From positions 8,250-72,249 of the forward strand of contig JACPWG010000100.1 of assembly GCA_016197205.1 (NCBI GenBank): 64,000 bases of DNA. The letters run 5' to 3'. The notes beneath the pieces were generated by a model. That model searched no databases and was not told where the DNA came from. It worked only from the letters and a program-made list of their open reading frames with translations. Of this stretch, positions 4,184-52,634 are shown one piece after another; within the stretch, counting starts at the first letter, position 1; every line of letters begins with the position of its first letter. This stretch comes from Planctomycetota bacterium (GTDB lineage: Bacteria; Planctomycetota; MHYJ01; WSZJ01; JACPWG01). Made by a program: the position numbers and the translations under genes.

Positions 4184-4339
4184 GGTCGGCCTCTTCAAAC
4201 CTCCGCCTACCCGCGCGGCGCTCCAGCGGACGAGTCCGCCCTGCACCCGCTCGCGCACGGACTGTCAGAACCACCTCCTCGCCTTCTCCCGGTGCCACTC
4301 CCGCACCCAACGGGCTCAGTAATGTTCAAGCGGGTCGCC

Positions 4340-4374
4340 CCGTCGGTGCAGGGCGGAAGCCCTGCACCACAAGG
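4340..4374. repeat. REP-like hairpin element CCGTCGG-TGCAGGGC-GGAA-GCCCTGCA-CCACAAGG (copy 1)
   Basis: Perfect 8-bp stem with a 4-nt loop. The same 34-bp unit recurs at 24903, 46385 and 46554, with a variant at 24660. Confidence 0.8.
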
Positions 4375-4676
4375 GCTCGCAGCCACCCGAAAAAGCAGTG
4401 GGAAGCTCGCTCATTCCCTCACCGGCATCTGCTGCTCCCTCTCCCAAGAGCCGATCCGTTCTCTGCACCCTGAAAGGGCTGGCCGGGCAGGCCATGCGCG
4501 CGGGCAGGGACGCTCGCGCCCCCAGGGGTCGTGAGGACAGCGCACGCGCGGTGTTTTTTTTGCGTAGGCCCCAACCGGGGACCCCGCACGCGGGACTCGA
4601 CTCGAAACCAGAGGTCCTGCCCTGCACATGGTCGCCTATCGCCGTCATGGCGTCCCCGCGAGTCAACAGGACCTGC

Positions 4677-6995: not shown

Positions 6996-7347
6996 CGTCG
7001 TTCCGCCTTCTTCGAACACACGTCAGGGGTCAGGGTCGCGGCCCGTGGCCCTCGGCACCGTTCATCCTGCACAACGCCGCAGAGGTCCCGCGCAGAAATA
7101 ACTTCACATGCCGTGGAGTGGTTCAGCACACCGGCGGATGAAGAGCGTCGTGCCAACCCTCGCCGTGGCGGCCACTTGCGCGGGCGGGGACGCCCGCGCC
7201 CCCAGGAGCCGTGAGGACGAAGCATGCGCAGTTATTCTTGCGCGGGCCCAGAGCGGCGACCTGAGGCGGCGGTTGGCGCCGCAGCCCACGCCCCTGGTCA
7301 GCAGCCCTCCCTGCCCCGCCAGCGTCGTGGAGCTTCGGGACCTTGTA

Positions 7348-13464: not shown

Positions 13465-13824
13465 ATGACGAAGATGCTTGCTTCCGGACTTGTCGGACTG
13501 GTGATGGCGCTCGCCATGCCCGCCGCGAGCGCCGACCACTACTCGAACACGTACTACCCGCCTTGTGGGTCCACGACCGTCACCTACGCGCCGGCCTACT
13601 ACACGCCGACGTACTACGCACCCACCTACTACACGCCGACCTACTACGCCCCGACCTACTACAGCCCTTGCACGACCACGACCTACTACACGCCCACCTA
13701 CTACCAGACCACGACCTACTGCCCGCCGACCTACTACGCGCCCACCTACTACCGCAGCGGGTCCTCCTTCTCCTATCGCTACTCCAGCGGGTGCTCGTCG
13801 TTCGGCTTCTCCTACCGCCGCTAG
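13465..13824 (+). CDS. small secreted Tyr/Thr/Pro-rich repeat protein (PTYY(A/T) repeats)
   Basis: RBS AAGGAG 7 nt upstream. Signal peptide MTKMLASGLVGLVMALAMPAASA. At least eight PTYY repeats, four Cys, very high GC3, and a terminator directly downstream. Confidence 0.7.
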   Translation: MTKMLASGLVGLVMALAMPAASADHYSNTYYPPCGSTTVTYAPAYYTPTYYAPTYYTPTYYAPTYYSPCTTTTYYTPTYYQTTTYCPPTYYAPTYYRSGSSFSYRYSSGCSSFGFSYRR

Positions 13825-14281: not shown

Positions 14282-14323
14282 AAATCCCAAATCCCAAATC
14301 CCAAATCCCAAATCCCAAATCCC
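14282..14323 (+). repeat. tandem heptamer array (AAATCCC)x5 plus AAATCAG
   Basis: Perfect 7-nt periodicity. An AT-rich island in a GC-rich genome. Confidence 0.9.
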
Positions 14324-14334
14324 AAATCAGGCGT

Positions 14335-14712: not shown

Positions 14713-14748
14713 CCAAATCTCAATTCTCAATTCTCAATTCTCAAATCC
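14713..14748 (+). repeat. tandem heptamer array AAATCTC-(AATTCTC)x3-AAATCCC
   Basis: Perfect 7-nt periodicity. It abuts the 3' end of the esterase gene. Confidence 0.85.
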
Positions 14749-24204: not shown

Positions 24205-24363
24205 TGGGCGCTGCGACCGAGGGGAGAGAAGGACGGGGGACGAACCGCGAAGTACGCCAAGTACGCGAAATTCGGAGAGAGGGAGAGTATAGGACGGCCG
24301 GGCGGAAATGCAACCGAATTCCGGGCCGCGGGGGCGGACCTCGCGGCTCAGGGCCCGTAAAGA

Positions 24364-24565
24364 AACAACAACCCGAACTGAGGCTAAACTCGACCGACGG
24401 CGGCAAATGGCTAGATCATGGCTCCGCGTCCCAGCTAGACACGGGCGAAATTTGAGATTTGAAATTTGACTTTTTGCAATTTGAAATTCGACCCGGCCGC
24501 GTGGGGCGAATGCGAGACTTTTGCACAGAGACGCGGAGACGCAGAGGCCGGGCGCCGAGTCCACC
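24364..24565 (+). repeat. Rpt200 interspersed repeat, copy 1 (about 200 bp; contains an internal AAATTTG/AGATTTG heptamer array)
   Basis: About 96% identical to 51025-51226. The 3' 85 bp are also present inverted at 40604-40688. Confidence 0.85.
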
Positions 24566-24659
24566 GTCCGCTACCGGCGATGATCTCTGGCAACGCACGG
24601 AGAGATCGGTCTTAGCTTCACTTCGGCTTGTTGTAAAGACACCCGTCAGGCACTCACGC

Positions 24660-24693
24660 CAGTCCGTGCAGGCCGGAAGGCCTGCACCCCAAG
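24660..24693. repeat. REP-like hairpin variant (TGCAGGCC-GGAA-GGCCTGCA)
   Basis: Same flanks (CAGTCCG..CACCCCAAGGG) as the other REP copies. Confidence 0.6.
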
Positions 24694-24782
24694 GGCCTCT
24701 CCCCAGCCCTTTCAAGGTGGTGTCGTCACGCTTCCGCCCGCCGCAAGCAGATGGTTCACTTGATCGTGCGGCTTGAGTCCGC

Positions 24783-24812
24783 TTTATGGTGCAGGGCTTC
24801 CGCCCTGCACCC
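24783..24812. repeat. REP-like hairpin (TGCAGGGC-TTCC-GCCCTGCA, inverted orientation)
   Basis: Core identical to the other copies. Confidence 0.7.
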
Positions 24813-24902
24813 GCACTCGCACGGAACCTCCGAAGCACTTCCCCCGTTCCCGTCGAGCCGCCCCCGCACCCAACGGCCTGCGTCATTTCCACCCGGGTTG
24901 TC

Positions 24903-24937
24903 CCGTCGGTGCAGGGCGGAAGCCCTGCACCACAAGG
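24903..24937. repeat. REP-like hairpin, full 34-bp unit identical to 4340-4374
   Basis: CCGTCGGTGCAGGGCGGAAGCCCTGCACCACAAGG. Confidence 0.8.
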
Positions 24938-25100
24938 TCTCGTGGCCGAAGGAGGAAAGCACTGGAAGCTCGCCCATTTCCGCGCACGGGCGGTTGAGGC
25001 TCCGTTTTGCGAAGATCAACTCGTTCGCCCACCTTGAAAGGGCTGGGGCCTTTTCCCTCCGACGAAGGTGCCGAGCCCGGGGTTGTTCCTGTACGGGCCC

Positions 25101-33647: not shown

Positions 33648-33764
33648 CGCGAACCCGGAGAGCGACACGCACCCGCGTCCTGTCCGCGGCCGCAAGCACG
33701 CTCGGAAAATCCGCGCGGGGACGCGGAGAGAGCCTCTTCGCCCCTCGAGCACGCTTCCTGGGCT

Positions 33765-33873
33765 CGCGGACTCTGAGCCTTGAACTTTGAGCCTTGTCTG
33801 AACATTGAGCCTTGAGCCTGTTCCCGAGGAACTCCCTGGTTTCCGAACTGCATGAGTTGATTTTTTACGGGCT
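33765..33873 (+). repeat. E-family (TGAGCC-rich) repeat, partial copy E4
   Basis: Aligns to the 3' half of 42499-42709 (GACTCTGAGCCTTGAACTTTGAGCCTTGTCTGAA...CCCTGGTTTCCGA...TTTTTACGGGC). Confidence 0.7.
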
Positions 33874-36269
<2,396 letters not shown>

Positions 36270-37684: not shown

Positions 37685-40138
37685 TCACTTCTCGTGGAAC
37701 GTCCACACGCCGTCCCAGTCCTCCGGCGGGGCTTCCCGGAGGAAGTGCTCACAACGGCCCACGTACAGCTTCGACACCTCGTCCCCCGGGTGGAGCCGGC
37801 CGGCGTCCGCGAAGCAGACCCGGGCGCGCGTCCAGTCCCGGGCGCGGTAGGACGCGAGCCCGGCATGGTGCGCGGCGAGAACCTCCGCCATCCGCGGAAA
37901 CGACTCCTCGTCCCTGCCGTCCAGGATCTCGAAGATCCCCACCGGCTGGGTCTTCCCCTTCACGCGGATCCGGTCGATCTCGCGCGTCCGGTGGGGCTTC
38001 ACGAAATCGCCGACGGTGAACTCGGTCGCGAGGATTTCCGTGCCGTAGCGCTTGTTCGCCCCTTCCAGGCGCGACGCCAGGTTCACGCCGTCCCCGACGA
38101 CCGTGTATTCCATCCGCTTGGGCGAACCGATGTTCCCCGAGACCACTTCGCCCGTGTTGATCCCGATGTGGGTCACGAGCGGGGTCCTGCCCTCGGCGGC
38201 GAAAGAGCGATTCAGGGGGCGGATGGCCCGCAGCATGCCCACGGCGGCGTCGACCGCGTGGTCGGCATCCTCGGGGCCGGCGAAGGGCACGCCGAAGACC
38301 GCCATGAGCGCGTCGCCGATGTACTTGTCGAGCACGCCCCCCTTTTCGAGCACCACGTCCACCAGGCGACTGAAGTAACTGTTCAGCATGCCGACCGTCC
38401 CCTGCGGTCCGATCCGTTCGGCGATTTGCGTGAAGTCCCGGATATCGCTGAAGAGGATGGTCGCGCGCAGGACCTTCCCGCCGAGCGCGCCCTCCCCCTC
38501 GGCCAGCAGCCGATCCGCGAGTTCCTTCGACATGTACCTCGCCATGGTGCTGCGTAAGCGCTTCTCCCGGGTCAGGTCCTCGAGCAGGAGGAGGCAGCCG
38601 GCCCGCGCCTCCCGGCGCTCCCCCAGCGGCACGACGGTGAGGTTCAAGGACGCGGAGCCGACCGGCCCGTCCCCGACCTCGCGCGCCCCGCCGCCCGCCT
38701 CGCGGCCCGCGGAGGACGCGGGCGTCGAAGTCGCGCGCCGCGACCAGGAGAGCGCCAGCTCGACATCGACGGCGACCTGCGGCTCCCCTTGACGTTCCAT
38801 CGCCTCGATGCTGCGGACGACCCAGGCGTTGTCCCCGTCGAAGAACTCCCGCGCCGCGCGGCCGAGCATCGCCTGCGGCGCGGATTCCAGGCCCGTGAGG
38901 CGGAGCGCCGCACGGTTCGCTTTCACGATCCGGCCGTCCGCATCGAGCGTGATGACGCCGTTCGTCATGCTCTCCAGGATCCCCTCGTTGTAGCGGTGCA
39001 GCGAGAGGAGGTCCTCGAAGTGCTGGGCGTTCTGGAGGGCGATCGAGGCCTGGGCGCAGAACCCGCGCAGCCGGTCCTCGTCCGAGGCGGTGAACACGCC
39101 CCCCTTCTTGTTCAGCACCTGGATGACCGCGGAGACCTGGTCGTCCCGATTCACGACCGGCATGGAGAGGATGCTCCTCGTCCTGCCGTGCGTGAGCTGG
39201 TCCATCTCGGGGCTGAACCGGGGGTCCAGATAGGCATCCGCGACATTGACCGTCTCCCGGCGGGCGAAGGTGCTGCCGAGGAGGCCCTGGTCCGCGGGGA
39301 AGCGCGCGTTCTGCAAGGCCGCGTCCTCGGCCACGCGGGCCCACAGCTCCTTTTTTTTCGGATCATACATGAAGAGCGTGGCCTTTTCGGCGTCGAGGAT
39401 GCCCTTGACCGACTCCATGATTTTCTGGAGCAGCGGCTCGAGCTGCAGCTCGCGTGCGAGCGCGGAGGTGACCTCCAGGAGCTTGCTCTCCTCCTCGCGC
39501 GCGCGGACGACCTCCTCGTGGAGCTGGGCATTCACGAAGGCCGAGCTGGCCTGGGCGGTGAGCGCGGCGAGGACCTCCACGTCCCGATCGTCGAAGGGGC
39601 CGGACCGTTTGTTCAGGACCTGGGCGACGCCGATCACGACGCCGCCGGCCTCGGCGGAGCAGCGGATGGGGACACAGAGGATGTTGCGCGTGCGATAGCC
39701 GGTCGCGCGGTCCACGGCGGGGTTGAATCGCGGGTCCGCGTAGGCGTCGGGAATGAGGAGGGGCGTGCCGCTCGTGAAGACCGCGCCGGCGATGCCGCGG
39801 TCGCTGGGAAAGCGGATGCACGACATGAGCGGGTCCCCGGAGGCGCGCGTGTACAGTTCCCCGGTGCGCCGGTCCCGGAGGAAGATCGTGCAACGCTCCG
39901 AATCGAGGAACTCCATCACGAGCCCGGTGAGGCGGCCGAGGAGGACGTTGACGGACATGGAGTCCGAGACGTTGCGGGAGACCTCGAGGAGGGAGGACAT
40001 GCGGACGAGGAGCGCGGAGAGCTTGTCCAGGAAATCGTTCTGGTCCTTGCGGACCAGCGACTCGAGCGTGCCGCGCAGGGAGTCCGCCTGGGGACGCTGC
40101 GCGACGATCCGCCCGAGGACATCCAACTCGTTCGTCAA
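37685..40138 (-). CDS. GAF-GAF-PAS sensor adenylate/guanylate cyclase (class III), TTG start with GGAG RBS
   Basis: Two GAF domains, a PAS domain, then the cyclase (FSDIRDFTQIAE...KYIGDALMAVFG...GDGVNLASRLE). Confidence 0.88.
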   Translation of the reverse strand: MTNELDVLGRIVAQRPQADSLRGTLESLVRKDQNDFLDKLSALLVRMSSLLEVSRNVSDSMSVNVLLGRLTGLVMEFLDSERCTIFLRDRRTGELYTRASGDPLMSCIRFPSDRGIAGAVFTSGTPLLIPDAYADPRFNPAVDRATGYRTRNILCVPIRCSAEAGGVVIGVAQVLNKRSGPFDDRDVEVLAALTAQASSAFVNAQLHEEVVRAREEESKLLEVTSALARELQLEPLLQKIMESVKGILDAEKATLFMYDPKKKELWARVAEDAALQNARFPADQGLLGSTFARRETVNVADAYLDPRFSPEMDQLTHGRTRSILSMPVVNRDDQVSAVIQVLNKKGGVFTASDEDRLRGFCAQASIALQNAQHFEDLLSLHRYNEGILESMTNGVITLDADGRIVKANRAALRLTGLESAPQAMLGRAAREFFDGDNAWVVRSIEAMERQGEPQVAVDVELALSWSRRATSTPASSAGREAGGGAREVGDGPVGSASLNLTVVPLGERREARAGCLLLLEDLTREKRLRSTMARYMSKELADRLLAEGEGALGGKVLRATILFSDIRDFTQIAERIGPQGTVGMLNSYFSRLVDVVLEKGGVLDKYIGDALMAVFGVPFAGPEDADHAVDAAVGMLRAIRPLNRSFAAEGRTPLVTHIGINTGEVVSGNIGSPKRMEYTVVGDGVNLASRLEGANKRYGTEILATEFTVGDFVKPHRTREIDRIRVKGKTQPVGIFEILDGRDEESFPRMAEVLAAHHAGLASYRARDWTRARVCFADAGRLHPGDEVSKLYVGRCEHFLREAPPEDWDGVWTFHEK

Positions 40139-40307: not shown

Positions 40308-40494
40308 GGCTTAGGGCCCGTAAAGGAACAAGTCAGGCAACTCGGAAACCGTGGACTTCCTCAGGAAAAGGCTCAAGGCTCAATGATCAATTTTCAGGCA
40401 AGGCTCAAAGTTCAAGGTTCAGAGTCCGCGATTCCGTGCCCGGGCTACGTTCCGAGGTGGTCTTTGAGAATTGAACCTTGAGCATTGAAAATTC
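40308..40494 (+). repeat. E-family repeat copy E1 (head TTAGGGCCCGTAAAGGAAC)
   Basis: Shares blocks with 42499-42709(-), 52378-52582(-) and 33765-33873. Confidence 0.8.
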
Positions 40495-40504
40495 TTGTCG
40501 TCTC

Positions 40505-40550
40505 CCTGCGCGTCAAACGAGCACGTTATTTTCTTCAACAAGCCGAAATG
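40505..40550 (-). repeat. 46-bp motif GAAGAAAATAACGTGCTCGTTTGACGCGCAGGGAGACG (copy 1)
   Basis: Also present at 42187-42235(+) and 52328-52376(+). Confidence 0.7.
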
Positions 40551-40603
40551 AAGCTAAAATCGATCTCTCAGTGCGTTGCCCGCGATTATCGCCGGTAGAG
40601 GAG

Positions 40604-40688
40604 GGTGGACTCGGCGCCCGGCCTCTGCGTCTCCGCGTCTCTGTGTAAAAGTCCCGCATTCGACCCACACGGCCGGTCCGAATTTCAA
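40604..40688 (-). repeat. Rpt200 partial copy (3' 85 bp), supplying the stop codon of the gene at 40685-41692
   Basis: The rc matches TTGAAATTCGACCCGGCCGCGTGGGGCGAATGCGAGACTTTTACACAGAGACGCGGAGACGCAGAGGCCGGGCGCCGAGTCCACC. Confidence 0.8.
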
Positions 40689-41692
40689 ATGGCGTAGAGG
40701 TCTTCGCGGCACGGGCACTCGACGACGAGCGCGAAGGGATCGATCCGGATCTGGCCGAGCGTGCGCGCCTCGCGGCCCGGCCGCGGCGACGAGACACAGC
40801 CTCCGGCTTCGAGCGACGCGGTCCAGCGCAGGCGCACCAAGGCCTCCGACTCCGCCACCGGCTCCACCGACATCCAGTCCCGCACCGCGTCGGCGACGAC
40901 CGCGGCCTCGCGGTGTTCGTAGCGCACGCGCCCGCCGCGCTCCGCTGACCCGCCCGCAGGCCACCCCGCCCCCACCGACTCCAGGTCTTCCGGACTCGGC
41001 TCGGGCATCCGCAGCCGCCCCGGCGCCCCGGCCGGCCAACGCGCCGCGCGGCCCCCATTCGCCCGCGCATAGTCGCGCATGGAGGCGATCTCCGTCCAGA
41101 GGTCCTCCTCCGTGCAGCGCCCCCGCCACTCCGACTCGTCGGAGAAGCGTACCCCGATCGCCGCTTCGAGCGCGCGCAGGTCCGGCAGGGTGCGTTCCGC
41201 GGCGAGCCCCTGCCCGAGTTCGGCGGCGGTCGCAGGGCCGGCTTCGTCGGCCCGCGCACCGGCTGCATCGGCGGACGGGAGGCTCGCGGAGGCTTTCTGG
41301 AAGAGACGCCAGTCGACCTCGGCGTCGACGAGCGGCTCGCCGGCGAAGGCGCAGACCCGCACGCGCTCTTGCGGGAGAGAGAGGCCGTGCCGTCGGGCGA
41401 GCAGGACGCCGCCCCAGAGGAGTTGGCGGGCGAGTCGGGGAGCGCAGCGTTCGAACGGGCCCGCCCCTTCGAAAGCGGCCGCCGGGCCGAGCTCGCGGAA
41501 CACGCGTTTCGGGACGGGTTGCGTACGAAAGGCCTCGCGCAGGCCAAGCCCCCAGCGGTCAACCAGGTAGAAGGCGGACCAGACTTCACCGGCGAATTCG
41601 CGCGCGAAGAGGAGGAGCACCATGCCGGAGCGAGGTCCGCCGGAGAGCAGGTACGTACCGAAGAGGGGAGCGTCGTCTGGGACCACCGCCAT
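40685..41692 (-). CDS. hypothetical protein
   Basis: High GC3 to the stop. The ATG at rc 41690-41692 is tentative. No family recognised. Flanked by inverted composite repeat blocks. Confidence 0.45.
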   Translation of the reverse strand: MAVVPDDAPLFGTYLLSGGPRSGMVLLLFAREFAGEVWSAFYLVDRWGLGLREAFRTQPVPKRVFRELGPAAAFEGAGPFERCAPRLARQLLWGGVLLARRHGLSLPQERVRVCAFAGEPLVDAEVDWRLFQKASASLPSADAAGARADEAGPATAAELGQGLAAERTLPDLRALEAAIGVRFSDESEWRGRCTEEDLWTEIASMRDYARANGGRAARWPAGAPGRLRMPEPSPEDLESVGAGWPAGGSAERGGRVRYEHREAAVVADAVRDWMSVEPVAESEALVRLRWTASLEAGGCVSSPRPGREARTLGQIRIDPFALVVECPCREDLYAI

Positions 41693-42186
41693 GCGAAAGG
41701 CGATGGGGAGTGGATCCGTGTAGAGTTCCGAATCGGCGGTGATCCGGCGGGGCGGCTGTCGTAAGGGACGTCGCGTCCGCTCCCCAACCCGCGCGGTGCC
41801 GGCAGGGTCGGTCGGCTCGATGACGACGCCGGGTCCGGAGCCATGGAGAGTGATCGGCTCGCCGGCGTCCGCGCACGGAGGGTGCGTGGACGTTGTGCCG
41901 GGAGCTTGTTCCTGCGGCAAGGGTCTGCTCCTTCTCGGGTAGCCCTGCTGGATCCACCGCGTGGCCAACGCCCGATAACGAAGCGATCTTACCGCGGGTT
42001 TCGCCGCTGCGCAAGTCATATTTTATGCTTTGTAAACTGCGGAGTGCGTGCCTCGTGAGACCGGACTCCTGACCGGCAGATTGACAACCCACCGCGCCGG
42101 GTGATACGATGCGCCGCGTTCCGATAACGACCCTTGGCCCGCCGCCGCCGTCGGCCAACGGTCCGCGCAAGGGGTGCCGCAGCCCA

Positions 42187-42235
42187 AAGGCCCCGTAAGA
42201 AAATAACTCGCTCGTTTGACGCGCAGGAGGGCGAC
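42187..42235 (+). repeat. 46-bp motif copy 2 (CCCGTAAGAAAATAACTCGCTCGTTTGACGCGCAGGAGGGCG)
   Basis: See 40505 and 52328. Confidence 0.7.
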
Positions 42236-42506
42236 ATGAATTCTCGTAACCGTTCACGGGGAGGTACGCGTTACCACAGAGGCACGAGGAGGTTGACATG
42301 TCGATTCGGGGATCTGGCGACTTCTTTTTGACAGGATAACGGGATCAACAGGACCTTCCAATGCGTATCCCGTTGATCCTGTGATCCTGTCAGAAAGAAA
42401 TCCGACGCCATTGCGTGTGGAAAATCCGGTGGTCGCAAAGCCGGGGAAGATCCGCCGTGAGGCCTCCGTTTCCCCGTCCTCCCGTGGTGAACGGTTACGA
42501 ATTCTC
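42236..42506. mobile_element. MITE-like element with about 27-bp TIRs (GAATTCTCGTAACCGTTCACGGGGAGG / CCTCCCGTGGTGAACGGTTACGAATTC) and nested internal hairpins
   Basis: Ends are reverse complements. The interior has GACAGGAT-AACGGGATCAACAGG...CCCGTTGATCCTGT-GATCCTGTC. Confidence 0.55.
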
Positions 42507-42709
42507 AATGCTCAATTTTTAAGACTCAGACAAGGCTCAAGGTTCAATTCTCAATGACCACCATGGAACGTAGCCCGGGCAAGGAATCGCGGACTCTGAG
42601 CCTTGAACTTTGAGCCTTGTCTGAAAATTGAGCATTGAGCCTTGAGCCTTTTCCTGATGAGCTCCCTGGTTTCCGAGCTGCAGGAGTTGTTTCTTTACGG
42701 GCCCTAAGG
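42499..42709 (-). repeat. E-family repeat copy E2, ending 60 bp upstream of dnaE
   Basis: The rc begins CCTTAGGGCCCGTAAAGAAAC. Most complete copy. Confidence 0.8.
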
Positions 42710-42770: not shown

Positions 42771-45700
42771 GTGAGCGTGAAGCGCGAGGACTTCGTCCAC
42801 CTGCACCTCCACAGCCACTACAGCCTCCTCGACGGCGCTGCGAAGGTCGACGAGATCGTTGAGACCGTGAAGAAGCACGGGATGCACGCGGTCGCGCTCA
42901 CCGACCACGGGAATCTCTTCGGCGCGATCGAGTTCTACCAGAAGGCCCTCAAGGCCGGCGTCAAGCCCATCCTCGGCATCGAGGCCTACATCGCGCCCGG
43001 CAAGCATACCGACAAGCGACAACTGCCCGGGCACGAAGGCAACTACCACCTCACCCTCCTCGTCCGGAACGAGCGCGGCTACAAGAACCTGCTCAAGCTC
43101 ACCACCACGGCCTACCGCGAGGGCTACTACTACAAGCCGCGCATGGACAAGGAACTCCTCGCCCGACACAGCGACGGGCTCCTCGCCCTCTCCGGCTGCC
43201 TCAACTCCGAGGTCTCCAAGGCCCTCCTCGCCGACGACGAAAAGCGCGCGACCGCGCTCGCCGAGGAGTACCGCTCGATCTTCGGGAAGGAGAACTTCTT
43301 CCTCGAGGTCATGAACCACAACATGCCCGAGCAGGACAAGGCGACGCGCGGCACGGTGAGGCTCGCCAAGCTGCTCGACATCCCGCTCGTCGCCACCAAC
43401 GACAGCCACTACGTCACGCGCGCGGACGCCGAAGCACAGGACGCCCTCCTCTGCATCGCGACCGGCAAGCTGGTCTCGGACGGCGACCGGATGAAGTTCC
43501 CCACCCAAGAATTCTACATCAAGTCCGCCGACGAGATGCGCGCGGCCTTCCCCGAGTTCCCCGAGGCGATCGCGAACACGATGCGCGTGGCCGAACGCTG
43601 CCACCTCGAGCTCAAGTTCGGCGAGATGCACCTCCCCCGCTTCGAGCCGCCCCCCGGCCAGACCCCTCACGGCTACCTCACGCAACTCTGCCGCGAAGGA
43701 CTCGCGCGCCGCTACAGCCCCGTGGCCGACGCCATCCTCGCCCGCCTCGCGTACGAACTGGAAGTGATCGAGAAGATGGGCTTCTCAAGCTACTTCCTCA
43801 TCGTGTGGGACTTCATCCGGTTCGGGCGCGAAAGCGGCGTACCGGTCGGGCCCGGGCGCGGCTCCGCCGCCGGCAGCCTCGTCGCCTTCGCCCTCGGCAT
43901 CACCAACATCGACCCGCTTCGGTACGACCTGCTGTTCGAGCGCTTCCTCAACCTCGGCCGCAAGGAAATGCCGGACATCGACATCGACTTCTGCCAGGAG
44001 AAACGCGAGCGCGTCATCGAGTACGTCCGCGACAAGTACGGCAAGGACAACGTCTCCCAGATCATCACCTTCGGCACGCTCAAGGCGCGCGCGGCCGTCC
44101 GCGACGCGGGCCGCGTGCTCGGCATCCCGCTCGCCCAGGTGGACCTGATCGCAAAAAAAATCCCGGCCGCGCTCGATATGACCGTGCAGAAGGCCCTCCA
44201 CGACGAGGCCGAGCTGCGCGACATGTGCGCGAAGGAACCGGCGGTCCAGAAGCTCTTCGACATTTCGCGCAGGCTCGAGGGGCTCTGCCGCCACGCCTCG
44301 AAGCACGCGGCCGGGGTCGTCATCTCCGACCAGCCCCTGCCGGAGATCGTTCCGCTCTACGTGAACGACGGCGAAGAGACCACCCAGTACGGCATGGAGG
44401 CGCTGGGCCAGCTCGGTCTGCTCAAGATGGACTTCCTGGGGCTCAACACGCTCACGATCCTCGATCGGGCGCTCCGGCTCGTGAAGGCCGTGCGCGGAGT
44501 CGACGTGGATCTGGAAAAAATCCCGCTCGACGACAAGCGGACCTACGAGATGCTCTCCGGCGGGGAGTCGTCGGCGGTGTTCCAGCTCGAATCCGGCGGA
44601 ATGCGCGACCTCCTGATGAAGATGCGGCCGAACACCTTCGAGGACATCATCGCCATCCTCGCGCTCTTCCGGCCGGGCCCGCTCCAGAGCGGCATGGTCG
44701 ACAGCTACGTCCGGTGCAAGCACGGGCTGGAGAAGATCCAGTACCTGCACCCGAAGCTCGAACCGATCCTGAAGGAGACGAACGGGGTGATCCTCTACCA
44801 GGAACAGGTGATGAGGATCGCCAACGTCCTCGGCGGCTTGACGCTGACCGAGGCCGACGGGCTCCGGAAGGCGATGGGCAAAAAAAAACCCGAGATCCTC
44901 GCGAAGTACCGCGAGCAGTTCGTGAAGGGGGCCGTGAAGAACGGCGTGCCCGAGCAGATCGGCGGCGAGATCTTCACGCTCATGGAGCACTTCGCCGGCT
45001 ACGGCTTCAACAAGTCCCACTCCGCGGCGTACGCGCTGGTCAGCTATCAGAACGCCTACATGAAGGCGAACTTCCCGACCGAGCTCATGGCCGCCTACAT
45101 GTCCTGCGAAATGGAAAAGACGGACAAGATCGTCGAATACATGGACGAGTGCCGGCGCCTCGGGATCGCGGTCCTGCCGCCGGACGTCAACGAGAGCGAC
45201 CGCGACTTCACGGTGGTCGGCGGCAAGATCCGGTTCGGCCTGGGCGCCGTCAAGGGGGTCGGCGACCGCTCGATCGAGGCGATTCGCGACGCGCGCACGA
45301 AAGTCGGGCGTTTCCGCTCGCTCTTCCAGTTCTGCGAAGAGGTGGAACTGACGTCGCTGAACAGCGGCGTGATGGAGTGCCTGGTGAAGTGCGGTGCATT
45401 CGACTCGCTGGGCGCGCGGCGGGCCCAGTTGGCGGCGGCGATCGACTCGGCGATGCGGCTTGGGTCGTCCTCGCAGGAGGACCGCCGCGTGGGGCAGGCG
45501 AGCCTCTTCGGGGCGCCGGCGCGCGGGAAGGGGGGCGCCGGGGCCGCGGTGCAGGAAGTCGAACCCGTGCTCCCTCAGGTGCCGGACTGGCCGGAGGAGG
45601 AGCAGCTCACGTACGAGAAGGAATCGCTCGGGTTCTACGTGACGGGACATCCCCTTGCGAAGCACGCGGAGTGCCTGAAGCTCTACAGCACGGTGACCAT

Positions 45701-46268
45701 CAAGGAGCTGCCGGAGCTGGCGGAGCGGATGAAGGACCGGACCCCGGACGGCATGGACGTCACCGTGGGCGGGATGATGACCGGCGTGGTCGCCTCGATC
45801 ATCAAGAACGGGGCGAGCAAGGGCCAGAAGATGTTCAAGTTCAAGGTCCGCTCCCTCGACGGCGCGATCGAGGGGGTGGTCTTCCCGAAGCAGGTCGAGG
45901 CGCTGAAGGACTACGTGAAGGAGGCGAACATCGGCTTCTTCCGCGGCAAGGTCGACTTCCGGAGGGAGGAGCCGTCGCTGCGGCTGAGCGAGTTCATCCC
46001 GATCGAGCGTGCGCGGGAGGCGCTGACCGGGACGCTGACGATCTCCATGAAGGCGATGGGGATGGACGAGGCGGTCCTGGACGCGCTGCGGGACGTCCTG
46101 CTCGAGCACCCGGGTCAGACAAGCGTGCTGCTCGAGATCACGGCGTCGAACGGGATGCGGGTGTCGCTGCGAACGGGGTCGAGCTTCCTGGTGTCGCCGT
46201 CCGACCGGTTCGTGCGGGACGTCGAGGACCTACTGGGGAAGTCGTGTCTGCGGTTCACGCGGAAGTAG
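42771..46268 (+). CDS. dnaE: DNA polymerase III subunit alpha
   Basis: PHP domain HLHLHSHYSLLDGA, polymerase core and OB fold. 1165 aa. Confidence 0.95.
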   Translation: MSVKREDFVHLHLHSHYSLLDGAAKVDEIVETVKKHGMHAVALTDHGNLFGAIEFYQKALKAGVKPILGIEAYIAPGKHTDKRQLPGHEGNYHLTLLVRNERGYKNLLKLTTTAYREGYYYKPRMDKELLARHSDGLLALSGCLNSEVSKALLADDEKRATALAEEYRSIFGKENFFLEVMNHNMPEQDKATRGTVRLAKLLDIPLVATNDSHYVTRADAEAQDALLCIATGKLVSDGDRMKFPTQEFYIKSADEMRAAFPEFPEAIANTMRVAERCHLELKFGEMHLPRFEPPPGQTPHGYLTQLCREGLARRYSPVADAILARLAYELEVIEKMGFSSYFLIVWDFIRFGRESGVPVGPGRGSAAGSLVAFALGITNIDPLRYDLLFERFLNLGRKEMPDIDIDFCQEKRERVIEYVRDKYGKDNVSQIITFGTLKARAAVRDAGRVLGIPLAQVDLIAKKIPAALDMTVQKALHDEAELRDMCAKEPAVQKLFDISRRLEGLCRHASKHAAGVVISDQPLPEIVPLYVNDGEETTQYGMEALGQLGLLKMDFLGLNTLTILDRALRLVKAVRGVDVDLEKIPLDDKRTYEMLSGGESSAVFQLESGGMRDLLMKMRPNTFEDIIAILALFRPGPLQSGMVDSYVRCKHGLEKIQYLHPKLEPILKETNGVILYQEQVMRIANVLGGLTLTEADGLRKAMGKKKPEILAKYREQFVKGAVKNGVPEQIGGEIFTLMEHFAGYGFNKSHSAAYALVSYQNAYMKANFPTELMAAYMSCEMEKTDKIVEYMDECRRLGIAVLPPDVNESDRDFTVVGGKIRFGLGAVKGVGDRSIEAIRDARTKVGRFRSLFQFCEEVELTSLNSGVMECLVKCGAFDSLGARRAQLAAAIDSAMRLGSSSQEDRRVGQASLFGAPARGKGGAGAAVQEVEPVLPQVPDWPEEEQLTYEKESLGFYVTGHPLAKHAECLKLYSTVTIKELPELAERMKDRTPDGMDVTVGGMMTGVVASIIKNGASKGQKMFKFKVRSLDGAIEGVVFPKQVEALKDYVKEANIGFFRGKVDFRREEPSLRLSEFIPIERAREALTGTLTISMKAMGMDEAVLDALRDVLLEHPGQTSVLLEITASNGMRVSLRTGSSFLVSPSDRFVRDVEDLLGKSCLRFTRK

Positions 46269-46602
46269 GGGCCCACCGCGCGCGAACCGTCTTTGCGAGG
46301 TCGAACCTGCGGGGGTGGTTGAACGCGCGGAGACCGCTCCCTCACGGTCGCGGTTCGGATTCCGCTGCCGCGGGCCGAGCGGCGTTGTGGTGCAGGGCTT
46401 CCGCCCTGCACCGGGCCACTCACGATGCCGGCGCCAGGGGCCCACCGCGCGCGAATCGTCCTTGCGAGGTCGAAACTGCGGGGGTGTTTGAACGCGCGGA
46501 GACCGCTCCCTGACGGTCGCGGTTCGGATTCCGCTGCCGCGGGCCGAGCGGTATTGTGGTGCAGGGCTTCCGCCCTGCACCGGGCCACTCACGATGCCGG
46601 CG
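46269..46602 (+). repeat. tandem direct duplication (2 x about 167 bp, about 90% identical), each unit ending in a REP-like hairpin
   Basis: Unit 1 is 46269-46436 and unit 2 is 46437-46602. It starts immediately after the dnaE stop. Confidence 0.85.
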
Positions 46603-46635: not shown

Positions 46636-47385
46636 ATGGACCCGCTCGACCCCACCACTGCGCTCACGCGCCGTCAGATGACCGCCGTCGACAAGCTGGC
46701 AACGGCACGCCTCGGCATGCCCTCGCTCCTCCTCATGGAGAACGCGGGGCGCGGGATCGCGGACGTGGTGCGGGCCATCGCCGGCGCGGGTCCGGGCCGG
46801 CCGCCGCTCATCCTCGTCGTGTGCGGTCACGGGAACAACGGGGGGGACGGGTACGTCGTCGCCCGCCGCTTGCTGCTCCACGGCGATAGCGTGCGCGTCC
46901 TCGTCGTCGGCCGGGAGGACGAGATCCGCGGCCGCGGTGACGCGGGCGTGAATCTCGAGATCGCGGCGCGCATAGGCGTGCCGATCGAGTTCACCGACAG
47001 GATGGACCGGCGCGACGTGGAGGCGCGGATCGCCTCCGCGTGGTTCCTCGTGGACGCGCTCTTCGGCACCGGCCTCTCGCGCCCGGTCGAGGGGATGGCG
47101 AAGGACGTGATCGGCTGGATGAACCAACGCGGCCGGTCCGTGCCGATCGTCGCGGTGGACATCCCGTCGGGCCTTGACTGCGACACGGGCGAGGTCCTCG
47201 GCGACGCCGTCCGCGCGGTCGTGACCGTCACGGTGGCCGCTCCGAAAACGGGTTTTTTCCGTGGCGAGGGGCCGCGTCTGGTCGGTGAACTGCGACTCGT
47301 CGATTTCGGCGTCCCGCTCGGCCCGCTGCGCGCCGCGCTCGCGGAGTCGCCGGAGGGGCGGGCCGACCAGAGATTTGAGATTTGA
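46636..47385 (+). CDS. nnrE: NAD(P)H-hydrate epimerase (YjeF N-terminal domain)
   Basis: VVCGHGNNGGDGYVVARRL...VDALFGTGLSRPV...VAVDIPSGLD. The stop lies inside an AGATTTG heptamer array. Confidence 0.8.
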   Translation: MDPLDPTTALTRRQMTAVDKLATARLGMPSLLLMENAGRGIADVVRAIAGAGPGRPPLILVVCGHGNNGGDGYVVARRLLLHGDSVRVLVVGREDEIRGRGDAGVNLEIAARIGVPIEFTDRMDRRDVEARIASAWFLVDALFGTGLSRPVEGMAKDVIGWMNQRGRSVPIVAVDIPSGLDCDTGEVLGDAVRAVVTVTVAAPKTGFFRGEGPRLVGELRLVDFGVPLGPLRAALAESPEGRADQRFEI

Positions 47386-47415
47386 GATTTTGCAATTTGA
47401 ATTTTGAGATTCGAT
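47371..47415 (+). repeat. AGATTTG heptamer array / Rpt200 core fragment (AGATTTGAGATTTGAGATTTTGCAATTTGAATTTTGAGATTCGA)
   Basis: Matches the Rpt200 internal block GAAATTTGAGATTTGAAATTTGACTTTTTGCAATTTGAAATTCGA. Confidence 0.75.
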
Positions 47416-51008: not shown

Positions 51009-51024
51009 CGCGCTCGAAAACAAA

Positions 51025-51226
51025 ACAACAACCCGAACTGAGGCTCAACTTGACCGACGGCGGCAAATGGCTAGATCATGGCACCGCGTCCCAGCTAGAC
51101 GCGGGCGAAATTTGAGATTTGAAATTTGACTTTTTGCAATTTGAAATTCGACCCGGCCGCGTGGGGCGAATGCGAGACTTTTACACAGAGACGCGGAGAC
51201 GCAGAGGCCGGGCGCTGAGTCCACCG
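51025..51226 (+). repeat. Rpt200 copy 2, forming the 3' end and C-terminal tail of the ADH gene
   Basis: About 96% identical to copy 1. Confidence 0.85.
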
Positions 51227-52294
51227 CGCCAGCTCCGCATCCACCACGAGCACCGCCGCCCCCTGGTGCTTTCCCCTGCGCAAGGAGTCGAGCGCCTCAT
51301 TGGCCGCCTCCAACGCGAAGGGAGTCACTTGCGTGCGCACCGGGATCCGCGGCGCGAGCGCAAGGAAGTCCTCCGCGTCCCGCCGCGTGAGGTTGGCGAC
51401 GGAGCGGAGGACGCGTTCCCCCCAGAGCAGTTCATAAGGGAAGGCGGGGATCTCGCTCATGTGGATCCCGCCGCAGACCACGACCCCGCCCTTGGCGACC
51501 GAGCGGAGGGCGGCGGGTACCAGTGCGCCGACCGGAGCGAGGACGATGGCGGCGTCCAGCTCCTCGGGCGGCCGGACGTCGGAGGCGCCCGCCCATTCGG
51601 CGCCGAGCGAACGGGCGAAGGCCTGCCCCGCGTCGTCGCCCGCGCGCGTGAAGGCGAAGACCCGGCGGCCTTGATGGCGCGCGACCTGAAGGAGGATGTG
51701 GGCCGCGGCGCCGAAGCCGTAGAGGCCGAGGCGACGGGCGTCTCCGGCCATGACGAGCGACCGGTAGCCGATGAGGCCGGCGCAGAGAAGCGGGGCGGCT
51801 TCGAGATCGCCGTAGCCGTCCGGGATCGAAAAACAAAACCGCGCGTCGGCCGCACAGAATTCGGCGAAGCCGCCGTCGAGCTGGTAGCCCGTGAAGCGCG
51901 GTTCGTCGCAGAGATTTTCTCGGCCGCCGGCGCAGAAGCGGCAGGTGCCGCAGGTGGACCCGAGCCACGGCACGCCGACGCGGTCGCCCACCTTCCAGCG
52001 CTTCCTCGTTGGCCCAGACCCCGCCCCAGCCATTGCCAAGCTGCTGCCCGTGGTCGCGGTAGCGCCTGCGCTCCCCCCGTCACCGCCGACCTCGACCACG
52101 CTCCCGACGATCTGGTGGCCGGGGATCACCGGGGACTTCGCCGGCGGCAACTCGCCATCGACCACGTGCAGGTCGGTCCGGCACACCGCGCACGCATGGA
52201 CGCGGAGCAGGAGCTGCCCGGGCGCGGGCCGCGGCGTGGGGACGTCGGCGGCCCGGAGCGGCGTGCGCGGGGCGTCGAGGAGCATGGCGCGCAT
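51095..52294 (-). CDS. zinc-dependent alcohol dehydrogenase (MDR family) with a Gly/Ala-rich insertion and a repeat-derived C-terminal tail
   Basis: LRVHACAVCRTDLHVVDGE...PGHQIVG (GHE-like)...GxGxxG region GLYGFGAAAHIL. The last 45 aa or so are encoded by Rpt200. Confidence 0.8.
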   Translation of the reverse strand: MRAMLLDAPRTPLRAADVPTPRPAPGQLLLRVHACAVCRTDLHVVDGELPPAKSPVIPGHQIVGSVVEVGGDGGSAGATATTGSSLAMAGAGSGPTRKRWKVGDRVGVPWLGSTCGTCRFCAGGRENLCDEPRFTGYQLDGGFAEFCAADARFCFSIPDGYGDLEAAPLLCAGLIGYRSLVMAGDARRLGLYGFGAAAHILLQVARHQGRRVFAFTRAGDDAGQAFARSLGAEWAGASDVRPPEELDAAIVLAPVGALVPAALRSVAKGGVVVCGGIHMSEIPAFPYELLWGERVLRSVANLTRRDAEDFLALAPRIPVRTQVTPFALEAANEALDSLRRGKHQGAAVLVVDAELARWTQRPASASPRLCVKVSHSPHAAGSNFKLQKVKFQISNFARV

Positions 52295-52327
52295 CGCAGC
52301 CTCCACCTGCCCGGGCCTGAAGGGTTA

Positions 52328-52376
52328 GGGCCCGTAAGAAAATAACTTGCTCGTTTAACGGGCAGGGGAGCAACAG
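52328..52376 (+). repeat. 46-bp motif copy 3 (CCCGTAAGAAAATAACTTGCTCGTTTAACGGGCAGGGGAGCAACAG), preceded by TTAGGG
   Basis: See 40505 and 42187. Confidence 0.7.
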
Positions 52377-52377
52377 G

Positions 52378-52582
52378 AATTCTCAATGCTCAATTTTCAA
52401 GACTCAGACAAGGTTCAAGGTTCAATTCTCAATGACCACCATGGAACGCAGCCCGGGCACGGACTCGCGGACTCTGAGCCTTGAAATTTGAGCCTGGTCT
52501 GGAAATTGATCATTAAGCCTTGAACCTTATCATGAAAAGCTCCCTGGTTTCCGAATTGAATGGGTTGTTTCTTGACACGCCC
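52378..52582 (-). repeat. E-family repeat copy E3
   Basis: Same block order as the plus strand of 42499-42709. Confidence 0.8.
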
Positions 52583-52634
52583 TTGCCGTCCTCGGCCGCG
52601 AAGGCGAGTCGCAAGCTTGTCCCGCGGCCGCCCC

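Follow-up and report, generated by a model that had tools for sequence, protein, structure and literature searches.

Repeats on either side of a hypothetical gene beside dnaE in a Planctomycetes MAG are probably worn-out MITEs with ISAzo13-type ends

Bacterial MITEs and the ISAzo13 family

MITEs are short non-coding deletion derivatives of IS, of which only the IS ends are kept. In bacteria they are hairpin-prone, intergenic and multicopy, have a terminal inverted repeat (TIR) in common with an IS, and are able to form fusions with ORFs (PMC3184786). Nezha (Anabaena/Nostoc, partner ISNpu3), Correia and Chunjie are small, non-coding, TIR-bounded elements flanked by direct repeats. The repeats analysed here lie in a 64,000-nucleotide stretch of DNA (the window), whose source genome is a Planctomycetes MAG. 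They show the same properties, but belong to another sequence family and another host phylum. Unlike Nezha, Correia and Chunjie, the window contains several unrelated bodies with one TIR, and its copies are old and nested.

The ISAzo13 family of IS (PF07592, DDE_Tnp_ISAZ013, 'Rhodopirellula transposase'; e.g. ISNpu10 of Nostoc punctiforme) is little studied. Its eukaryotic relative Zator also makes 3-bp duplications (PMC10045372), as ISAzo13 elements do (PMC10045372, PMC5718144). The window elements have in common with these IS the 3-bp T(T/A)A duplication and GG-initial TIRs of ~20-30 bp with the core GTAAAAATAACTTG.AC.ATT. On the other hand, the window elements are 166-750 bp long and encode no transposase, and the TIR tip is GGGCCCG in the window and GGCATCATG or GGACACG in ISAzo13 IS. 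Tourist MITEs resemble the window repeats in having many short bodies, one TIR and TWA duplications. Zator and Tourist (PIF/Harbinger) are both eukaryotic, and the transposase of Tourist is of another superfamily (IS5-like).

Two inverted MITE copies around a gene, as seen here, are also found in MITE-flanked composite units (e.g. integron mobilisation units). In contrast to these, the window unit lacks a matching whole-unit duplication and has decayed inner ends, and a second copy of it was not found; its membership in this group is not supported. Judged from sequence, the bracketing repeats are very probably worn-out MITEs with an ISAzo13-family end sequence and a 3-bp target duplication.

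Repeats and genes in the window

An earlier note on this DNA had described a hypothetical gene bracketed by repeat blocks named E, the 46-bp motif and Rpt200. All listed blocks were found where it had placed them (Table 1). Two inverted E copies do bound a 2.4-kb segment, with arms of 178 nt (40310-40487 and 42531-42708) that are 90% complementary. The distance to dnaE, given as about 60 bp, was measured as 63 nt to the GTG at 42771, and copy B lies in the dnaE leader. E and the 46-bp motif had been taken as separate elements. MAFFT alignment showed that they are the two ends of a single ~255-bp unit, running from GGGCCCGTAA end to GGGCCCGTAA end, whose termini (GGGCCCGTAAGAAAATAAC and GGGCCCGTAAAGAAACAAC) carry inverted terminal repeats. 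A third E block is present at 52377-52583 (89% identity), and the motif lies at 42188-42245 and again at 52327-52384 (86%), with one further copy, inverted, at 40487-40535. At the alcohol dehydrogenase (ADH) gene, the order of motif and then E that the note had read as a gene-bracketing syntax is real, but it is simply one intact element, copy C, which is flanked by TTA and TTG and stands 31 nt upstream of the ADH start codon (ATG at 52294).

Table 1. Features of the window, with positions counted from its first nucleotide
Feature	Position	Strand	Remarks
Variant-TIR element, 166 bp	7084..7249		TIRs GGTCCCGCGCAGAAATAACT and GGGCCCGCGCAAGAATAACT
750-bp element, same TIR as E	24351..25100	+	GGGCCCGTAAAGAAACAAC left, GGGCCCGTACAGGAACAAC right (reverse strand)
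E half copy D, right half only	33764..33876	+	decayed TIR GAGCCCGTAAAAAATCAAC
TTA flank of E copy A (putative target-site duplication remnant)	40311..40313		directly outside GGGCCC
E copy A	40314..40535	-	inverted relative to intact copy; TIR GGGCCCGTAAAGGAACAAG at 40314
Rpt200 fragment	40536..40693	-	inverted; 90% over 158 nt; equals positions 126-283 of the 24351-25100 element
Hypothetical gene, 411 aa	40685..41920	-	TTG start preceded by GAAGGAG
Predicted sigma-70-like promoter TTGACA-18-TACGAT	42081..42110	+	toward dnaE, upstream of copy B
E copy B, left (motif-side) part	42189..42245	+	TIR GGCCCCGTAAGAAAATAAC
Nested second-family element, 253 bp	42246..42498		TIR GTAACCGTTCAC, 12/12
E copy B, right (E-side) part	42499..42704	+	ends in TIR GGGCCCGTAAAGAAACAAC (reverse strand)
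TAA flank of copy B	42705..42707		opposite flank 42186-42188 is AAA
dnaE (DNA polymerase III alpha)	42771..46268	+	Pfam PHP, DNA_pol3_alpha, finger and HHH_6 domains
Rpt200 copy 2	51010..51226	+	terminus decayed; spans permease stop codon to ADH gene
E copy C, intact 255-bp reference	52328..52582	+	motif side fused directly to E side

The shared head was well above chance. With at most 2 mismatches, GGGCCCGTAARGAAA occurred 6 times against 0.14 expected, and none of 100 shuffles reached 6; for the 19-mer with at most 4 mismatches, 8 matches were obtained in the window and 0 in each of 20 shuffles. GGGCCCGTAAAGAAAYAAC is a TIR of 19 bp, and the TTA ahead of GGGCCC, previously counted as part of the repeat head, lies outside the element as a flanking 3-bp target-site duplication. 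The head TTAGGGCCCGTAA is thus a target duplication plus an ISAzo13-type TIR. Three otherwise unrelated elements had been thought to begin with this head; the window holds only two body types that have the TIR in common, the ~255-bp E and Rpt200/24351-25100.

Four copies of E, three of Rpt200 and one variant occur in the 64-kb window, with element sizes of 255, 166 and 750 bp. Copies A, B and C are 80-86% identical in pairwise comparison (MAFFT), A and B 86%. Copy A has a 25-bp internal deletion, and its motif-side TIR lacks the final 8 nt. Copy B (42189-42704 as a whole) is interrupted by the nested 253-bp element, which is bordered by a perfect 8-bp direct duplication (GAATTCTC, at 42238-42245 and 42499-42506); the paralogous empty sites hold a single GAATTCTC in copy C and GAATTTTC in copy A. 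Because the flanks of the three E copies are imperfect (AAA/TAA, TTA/TTG, and one end lost), their transposition is presumed from family resemblance.

The 24351-25100 element is bordered by a perfect TCA/TCA duplication. Rpt200 makes up its left 283 nt, and the element houses a nested 348-bp element with a 20/20 TIR CCCCAGCCCTTTCAAGGTGG at 24701 and 25048. The variant element at 7084-7249 is flanked by AGA/AGA, and a partial relative of it ends at 4573. Rpt200 copies 24363-24566 and 51023-51226 are 97% identical, and copy 2 codes for the C-terminal ~45 aa of the ADH ORF. Despite this identity to copy 1, copy 2 was observed to lack either terminus, and simple TIR-dependent transposition does not account for it. 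No transposase was found in the window by tblastn with four ISAzo13 transposases, and the 64 kb showed no autonomous ISAzo13 partner. Against Rfam, the window matched only a tRNA.

The hypothetical gene is a member of a protein family that is real but uncharacterised. Its GC3 is 0.82, in this frame only, its product is identical to the NCBI MAG protein HYZ53_17820, and 36 distant cluster representatives were found, the best with 33% identity over the full length. Exact-protein look-ups of the window DnaE and the hypothetical protein returned no record. The hypothetical protein had no Pfam or NCBIfam match and no PDB-fold match at an E of 0.001 or better; in its AlphaFold model (mean pLDDT 66), residues 80-215 form a confidently predicted domain. 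The Rpt200 fragment contributes the final codons of the gene together with its stop codon (40685-40687), and the nearest homologue of the gene lies in a contig without these TIRs or repeats.

The segment has a GAF/PAS cyclase gene and dnaE as neighbours, and no recombinase or integrase gene adjacent to it was found. The N-terminus of dnaE was aligned to a relative's DnaE. The predicted promoter upstream of copy B agrees with the consensus at 10/12 positions and has TG before its second hexamer; the nearest relative has a similar TTGACA-17-TATCCT upstream of dnaE, followed by TCCGATAA. The nearest DnaE relatives (72% and 60% identical) are too distant for a clean empty-site comparison; in the 72% relative, no element is present in the 235 nt upstream of dnaE, and the regions are barely alignable.

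The same ends in other genomes and beside ISAzo13 coding remnants

An exact-pattern scan for the TIR in other genomes gave at least 88 loci. Among the matches listed, 30 were complete paired elements between 87 and 300 bp long. They came from unclassified MAGs and from MAGs with the labels Chlamydiae, Planctomycetia, Acidobacteria and Pseudobdellovibrionaceae; Anaerolineae and Armatimonadota MAGs had IS ends at contig starts. MITEs were numerous in two Chlamydiae MAGs, where many contigs terminate inside them. Identical 3-bp flanks were present in 26/30 of the complete elements listed, with 12 TAA/TAA pairs, 12 TTA/TTA pairs and no TTA/TAA pair, which proves that the triplet is a duplication, not part of a longer inverted repeat. 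At 104/127 ends of the listed related loci, the triplet outside the TIR was TTA or TAA, forming a direct repeat. Target-site duplications, a check that the earlier note had proposed, are thus seen both here and in the window (TCA/TCA, AGA/AGA). Together with the 19-bp TIR, these duplications bear out its suggestion of MITE families mobilised by a common transposase.

Viral contigs gave 0 matches to the TIR, and blastn against plasmids gave only chance matches of 18-21 nt. A literature search for GGGCCCGTAA / TTACGGGCCC returned unrelated topics only. Several loci were set aside: the apparent long elements in L010 (793-1990) and L056 (2156-4300) are ordinary host genes with no transposases, as are the ORFs beside solo TIRs in eight loci, and a match on a Candidatus Manganitrophus plasmid (L092) is an uninformative remnant.

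The common transposase could be made specific, as an element with PF07592 (ISAzo13) transposase fragments has a TIR of this type at its ends. In contigs of Anaerolineae type, TATAAT comes after the TIR, and then a Shine-Dalgarno sequence and an ORF starting MTKEIHKCECEIC.... A 37-aa N-terminal fragment of this IS had no Pfam or NCBIfam match and no BLASTP match to the ISNpu10 N-terminus; a protein-database search gave a 34-aa fragment only, which led to the decisive contigs. Locus L102 (3932-4982) is a full-context, internally deleted copy of the Anaerolineae-type element. Its two ends, TAA|GGGTCCGTAAAAGAATAAC and, on the reverse strand, GGGTCTGTAAAAATATAAC, form a TIR with 2-3 mismatches. Its ORF fragments match PF07592 at E of 2e-16 and 1e-16 (profile positions 2-77 and 227-287 of 308). 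Locus L047, a contig end that encodes ...GDWNYTIHPRKR*, begins inside an element, with the exact TIR preceded by ...FRGDWNYTIHPRKR*; WNYTI, a C-terminal motif of ISAzo13, stands beside this exact TIR. The L047 peptide is matched at the equivalent position by three annotated ISAzo13 transposases and was the best match in the DNA searched, while the 21-aa C-terminal peptide had no Pfam match. Annotated plasmid-borne ISAzo13 elements have GG-initial TIRs and TAA/TAA or TTA/TTA flanks, and the TIR of ISNpu10 (GGCATCATGTAAAAATAACTTGAACAATTTG), with flanks TAA/TAA, aligns with the window TIR over about 20 nt. An intact full-length ISAzo13 element with the exact GGGCCCGTAA TIR was not recovered from the searched DNA, and the likely link to ISAzo13 rests on one internally deleted copy and contig-end fragments.

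Origin of the bracketed segment

The bracket is best read as two independent, old insertions, one in each intergenic region beside the hypothetical gene, because the outer flanks differ (TTA and TAA), no recombinase gene is nearby and no transposase is present in the window. The parent would be an ISAzo13-family IS with a DDE transposase (Pfam PF07592). By analogy with the family, a transposase supplied from elsewhere would bind the ~19-33-bp TIR GGGCCCGTAAAGAAAYAAC(TTG.C.ATT), and the element would be excised or copied and then inserted by way of a 3-bp staggered cut at T(T/A)A, giving the 3-bp direct duplication. Two separate E insertions in opposite orientation would have ended up on either side of the gene, one in the region 3′ of it, which is also the upstream region of the GAF/PAS cyclase gene, and the other in the divergent region between it and dnaE. 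Later decay removed 8 nt of one TIR from copy A, which now adjoins the Rpt200 fragment, and copy B was struck by a second-family element that makes 8-bp duplications. Since the copies are 80-86% identical and the window contains no transposase, the elements are most likely immobile fossils by now.

Movement of the whole segment as a MITE-bounded composite transposon, using the outer TIRs of both E copies and carrying the hypothetical gene as cargo to the side of dnaE, appears improbable. Its outermost ends (40314, + strand; 42704, - strand) are well-preserved, outward-facing E-side TIRs, and the enclosed gene has distant relatives only and is not syntenic with either of the two closest dnaE loci. 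However, the whole unit is flanked on the + strand by TTA (40311-40313) and TAA (42705-42707), which is no direct repeat, in contrast to the identical flanks of most single elements listed elsewhere. Moreover, copies A and B are as unlike as old paralogues, and the closest homologue of the gene comes without these TIRs. If the composite were true, a captured gene of an uncharacterised family and a long structured leader would have been set directly before the essential dnaE, and transposase-less MITE pairs would shuttle genes in Planctomycetes.

A different parent of the MITEs, an IS5-family or PIF/Harbinger-like (Tourist-like) transposase, would be compatible with the 3-bp T(T/A)A duplication, as those families also duplicate TNA/TWA and have GGG-initial ends; the TIR tip GGGCCCGT presumably resembles Tourist/PIF ends. 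However, the coding remnants beside the TIRs were ISAzo13 every time (PF07592 in L102, WNYTI in L047) and no DDE_Tnp_1 or DDE_Tnp_4 partner transposase was encountered beside them; this and the alignment with the ISNpu10 TIR make such a parent very improbable.

The earlier note had also raised an invertible or cassette-like structure, and recombination between the ~200-bp inverted E copies could in principle flip the gene as a phase-variation switch. The long inverted repeat around 2 kb would suit this, and the flanks fit either orientation; they cannot separate the two because TTA read on the opposite strand is TAA. Against the proposed structure stand the differing outer flanks, the lack of an adjacent invertase, recombinase or integrase gene, and the nearest homologue of the enclosed gene, which lies apart from such repeats. 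The arms are 86-90% identical and have not been homogenised, with a 25-bp deletion and a lost terminus in one and the 253-bp insertion in the other, and the same element is found singly at unrelated loci. Moreover, the promoter-like dnaE site lies inside the segment, and therefore inversion would uncouple this essential gene from it. We consider a switch hardly credible.

Just as little probability was given to non-mobile functional repeats, REP-like or structured regulatory RNA, acting as terminators, leaders or protein-binding sites. The E body is a long imperfect hairpin of ~7-nt periodic units, and copies lie near gene starts, such as those of dnaE and the ADH gene. However, the fold is unexceptional (z = -1.56) and matches no Rfam family, positions relative to genes are inconsistent (5′ of some genes, between convergent genes elsewhere), and transposition is the process marked by 3-bp direct duplications, nested insertions and deletion derivatives. 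REP/BIME-like elements were ruled out by the target duplications and nested insertions, and integron attC-like cassette boundaries by the inverted rather than direct repeats and the absence of an integrase.

The repeats, read as two old MITE insertions, are ordinary genome litter, neither a gene cassette nor an invertible switch. The main value of the finding is annotation, as it accounts for the dense intergenic repeats of a Planctomycetes MAG. The compact signature T(T/A)A followed by GGGCCCGTAAAGAAAYAAC (scan form T(T/A)A+GGGCCCGTAARRAAAYAAC) detects MITEs of this kind in genomes whose labels cover four phyla or more, and in a further two it picks up the corresponding IS ends. Among the papers mentioning ISAzo13 in the literature searched, none describes ISAzo13-derived MITEs; this connection may therefore help in cataloguing transposons and in work on the eukaryotic relative Zator. 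Present-day effects in the window are likely incidental and would comprise the location of copies in promoter regions and a stop codon or tail for two ORFs. The longer dnaE leader and the ~45-aa tail on the alcohol dehydrogenase are ordinary but real cases of MITEs reshaping genes.

Repeat blocks in the window and the anatomy of the E element

The intergenic regions of the window (G+C ~68%) are dense in repeats, and the neighbouring genes are chromosomal housekeeping genes. The repeat blocks and shared head described in the earlier note were confirmed: inverted E copies, the 46-bp motif and the repeat Rpt200 were all recovered, and the head GGGCCCGTAARGAAA (at most 2 mismatches) occurred 6 times in the window versus 0.14 expected. 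The 19-mer (at most 4 mismatches) gave 8 matches versus 0 in each of 20 shuffles. The observation was correct, and its interpretation half-correct.

At 52328-52582 (copy C), the motif passes directly into E, giving a 255-bp unit which starts with GGGCCCGTAAGAAAATAAC and whose E-side terminus on the other strand, GGGCGTGTCAAGAAACAAC, has decayed from the GGGCCCGTAAAGAAACAAC kept in copy B. In the MAFFT alignment, 40314-40535 (copy A) was this unit inverted, with a 25-bp internal deletion and the final 8 nt of the motif-side end missing, and 42189-42704 (copy B) was the same unit after removal of 42246-42498 and one GAATTCTC; pairwise identities were 80-86%. The alignment indicates that E and the motif, previously treated as separate blocks, are two halves of one element bounded by terminal inverted repeats (TIRs). 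This anatomy and the identity of the TIRs were directly observed.

The 253-bp insert in copy B carries a perfect 12-bp TIR GTAACCGTTCAC with direct GAATTCTC on either side, an octamer that is single in uninterrupted E copies, and is a textbook nested insertion of a second element making 8-bp duplications. Rpt200 makes up the left-hand 283 nt of a 750-bp element (24351-25100), which has an E-type TIR at both ends, a perfect TCA/TCA duplication and a nested 348-bp element (TIR 20/20).

Repeats and genes discussed in the text (window positions unless a locus is named)
Feature	Position	Strand	Remarks
Variant element	7084-7249		166 bp; AGA/AGA flanks
E half copy	33764-33876		
E inverted repeat	arms 40310-40487, 42531-42708		178 nt, 90% complementary
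Third E copy	52377-52583		
46-bp motif	42188-42245, 52327-52384, 40487-40535		last copy inverted
Rpt200	24363-24566, 51023-51226, 40536-40693		first two 97% identical; last an inverted fragment
GAF/PAS adenylate/guanylate cyclase gene	37685-40138	minus	
Predicted dnaE promoter-like site	42081-42110		TTGACA-18-TACGAT; best candidate
dnaE	42771-46268		
YjeF_N gene; ABC permease			further neighbours
Zinc alcohol dehydrogenase (ADH) gene	51095-52294	minus	
REP-like hairpin	4344-4372, 24784-24811, 24907-24935, 46385-46413, 46554-46582		
7-nt-period runs	14282-14328, 14714-14747, 24447-24488, 47370-47411, 51107-51148		
7-nt-period runs	40365-40431, 42504-42646; L100 1-45		E bodies; relative
Full-context element	L102 3932-4982		1051 bp

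Target-site duplications and the TIR in other genomes

An exact scan for GGGCCCGTAARRAAAYAAC, with one genome per bacterial species, returned at least 88 loci. Among the matches listed, complete paired elements were found in two Chlamydiae MAGs, which have dozens of copies with many lying at contig ends, and also in one Planctomycetia MAG, in Acidobacteria and Pseudobdellovibrionaceae, and in MAGs without a classification. Insertion sequence (IS) ends at contig starts were found in Anaerolineae and Armatimonadota MAGs; the G+C of the loci was 36-68%. None of these matches carries the E body, so the window's source genome is not among them. Across elements of several phyla the 19-bp terminus hardly varies; this is still notable, although the exact-match search accounts for part of it.

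The triplet outside GGGCCC was TTA or TAA at 104 of 127 ends among the matches listed. These matches included at least 30 complete elements of 87-300 bp, and same-strand flanks were identical in 26 of 30 (TAA/TAA in 12, TTA/TTA in 12; TTA/TAA never). Because a triplet inside the inverted repeat would give TTA...TAA, the only possible reading of this pattern is a 3-bp target-site duplication, and the TTA which the earlier note had included in the shared head is target DNA. Such duplications were observed for two elements of the window as well as for these 26.

The Chlamydiae copies form the usual series of internal-deletion derivatives (87, 101, 103 and 146-164 bp) of MITEs, short non-coding TIR-bounded derivatives of insertion sequences. 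In these MAGs, K1000_chlam_2 and SZUA-160, a 162-bp ISAzo13-type MITE is abundant alongside shorter derivatives, and the loci retrieved (L002-L088) yielded no transposase. Many of their contigs end 86-122 nt inside the 162-bp MITE, which is probably a major cause of fragmentation in both assemblies.

Evidence for an ISAzo13 parent

Four contigs, two from MAGs and two from metagenomes, stop 107-179 nt inside an element, in the order TIR, TATAAT, Shine-Dalgarno sequence and an ORF starting MTKEIHKCECEICRTESDPEVLQQHQQMNLLLSRLNE. A database search with this peptide gave a 34-aa fragment, whose encoding contigs hold the element in full context. In one of them, L102, the left end is GGGTCCGTAAAAGAATAAC preceded by TAA, and the right end, on the reverse strand, is GGGTCTGTAAAAATATAAC; promoter and N-terminus are those of the contig-end ORFs, the continuation LNEPQRRWYVAA is in a shifted frame, and the C-terminus is RPQWNYTISPR. 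Two ORF fragments matched PF07592 (DDE_Tnp_ISAZ013; E 2e-16 and 1e-16, both passing the curated cut-off), covering profile positions 2-77 and 227-287 of 308, and the L102 element is an ISAzo13 copy with an internal deletion, partway to becoming a MITE.

Three independent lines of evidence agree with this. An Armatimonadota contig (L047) begins within an element whose TIR is exact and whose flank is TTA, and the adjoining reading frame ends in LHLTPDKFRGDWNYTIHPRKR before its stop. In tblastn of this 21-mer against plasmids, individual scores were weak, and every annotated feature listed was an "ISAzo13 family transposase". Three reference ISAzo13 proteins matched the peptide at their equivalent position, a Streptomyces ISAzo13 protein being the best match in all DNA searched (E 0.026). 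Annotated plasmid ISAzo13 elements have GG-initial TIRs with TAA/TAA or TTA/TTA flanks, and the ISNpu10 TIR GGCATCATGTAAAAATAACTTGAACAATTTG aligns with the window TIR GGGCCCGTAAGAAAATAACTTGCTCGTTT. Both ISAzo13 and its eukaryotic relative Zator generate 3-bp duplications (PMC10045372, PMC5718144). The parent family is ISAzo13 and not IS5/PIF-Harbinger, whose TWA duplications look similar. No ISAzo13 coding sequence was found in the window.

With TIRs, fixed-length duplications, no coding capacity, multiple dispersed copies and a TIR common to an IS, the window elements work like and qualify as a bacterial MITE family. The proposal of MITE families mobilised by a common transposase is supported by one TIR, 3-bp duplications and PF07592 next to the TIR. 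Reviewed bacterial MITEs show the same deletion derivatives, nesting and ORF fusions (PMC3184786), the cyanobacterial Nezha/ISNpu3 may be related, and no description of ISAzo13-derived MITEs was found in the literature searched.

Other repeats were also seen. A third family has a perfect 20-bp TIR CCCCAGCCCTTTCAAGGTGG at 24701 and 25048; this copy lies inside the ISAzo13-type element 24351-25100, and a 75%-identical relative at 4235-4482 (region 4235-4484) adjoins the right part of another (4485-4573), which may reflect an insertion preference or coincidence. A G+C-rich REP-like hairpin, GGTGCAGGGC-TTCC-GCCCTGCACC, recurs in the window, where it lies within a tandem duplication of 169 bp (46267-46602) directly after dnaE. 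It also occurs on the 3' side of dnaE in the nearest relative (L100 4288-4393) and at both ends of L099, the contig that encodes the nearest homologue of the hypothetical protein. A+T-rich runs of 7-nt period are found in many intergenic repeats and are conspicuous against a 68% G+C genome (units AAATCCC, CAATTCT, GAAATTT and GAGATTT; GAGTACG in the relative), and both arms of the E hairpin are built of CTCAAGG-like units. At 13547-13782, in an ORF-dense region, ~11-13 tandem 15-bp units (consensus CTACACGCCGACCTA) would, if translated, give a Tyr/Thr/Pro-rich pentapeptide repeat.

Genes beside the elements and proposed history of the locus

The hypothetical gene (40685-41920) encodes a 411-aa protein identical to HYZ53_17820 of the NCBI source record "MAG: Planctomycetes bacterium". 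A word-indexed search returned only the self match, and exhaustive HMMER search gave 36 distant cluster representatives, the best 33% identical over full length and the others sharing residues ~80-215. No Pfam or NCBIfam family matched. AlphaFold modelled 80-215 as a confident, conserved domain (~135 residues, pLDDT above 90) with no fold match in the PDB. It is a real gene of a small uncharacterised family, and nothing links its function to the repeats.

In the ADH ORF, residue ~352 is where solved zinc alcohol dehydrogenases end; Rpt200 copy 2 (51010-51226) encodes the ~45 residues beyond it, indicating that the repeat has replaced the native stop codon, forming a repeat-ORF fusion. The hypothetical gene likewise takes its final codons and its stop (40685-40693) from the Rpt200 family. 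The two longer Rpt200 copies are far closer to each other than the E copies are. Copy 2 lacks both termini, spanning element positions 13-216 only, and recent TIR-dependent transposition fails to explain such a fragment at 97% identity; gene conversion or recent segmental copying may account for it.

Had the two E copies moved the hypothetical gene as one composite transposon, equal outer flanks would be expected; they are TTA and TAA, and no such TIRs occur in the contig that carries the gene's nearest homologue, so this reading is disfavoured. The invertible or cassette-like segment suggested earlier is likewise disfavoured by arms that are not homogenised, by the lack of an adjacent recombinase gene, and by the best promoter-like site for dnaE lying within the segment. 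In the nearest relative (DnaE 72% identical), a similar site followed by TCCGATAA precedes dnaE, and no E-like element was found in the 235 nt available upstream, a region highly diverged from the window. Insertion of copy B into the leader of dnaE would agree with this, the sequences being too diverged for a clean empty site.

Independent insertion is the reading we prefer. A trans-acting ISAzo13 transposase would once have mobilised the elements into T(T/A)A sites, with two E copies entering both intergenic regions beside the hypothetical gene separately and in opposite orientations, and a third inserting upstream of the ADH gene, 31 nt from its start codon. That the E copies are old and probably immobile is indicated by their divergence, by truncation and a nested insertion, and by imperfect flanks (AAA/TAA, TTA/TTG).
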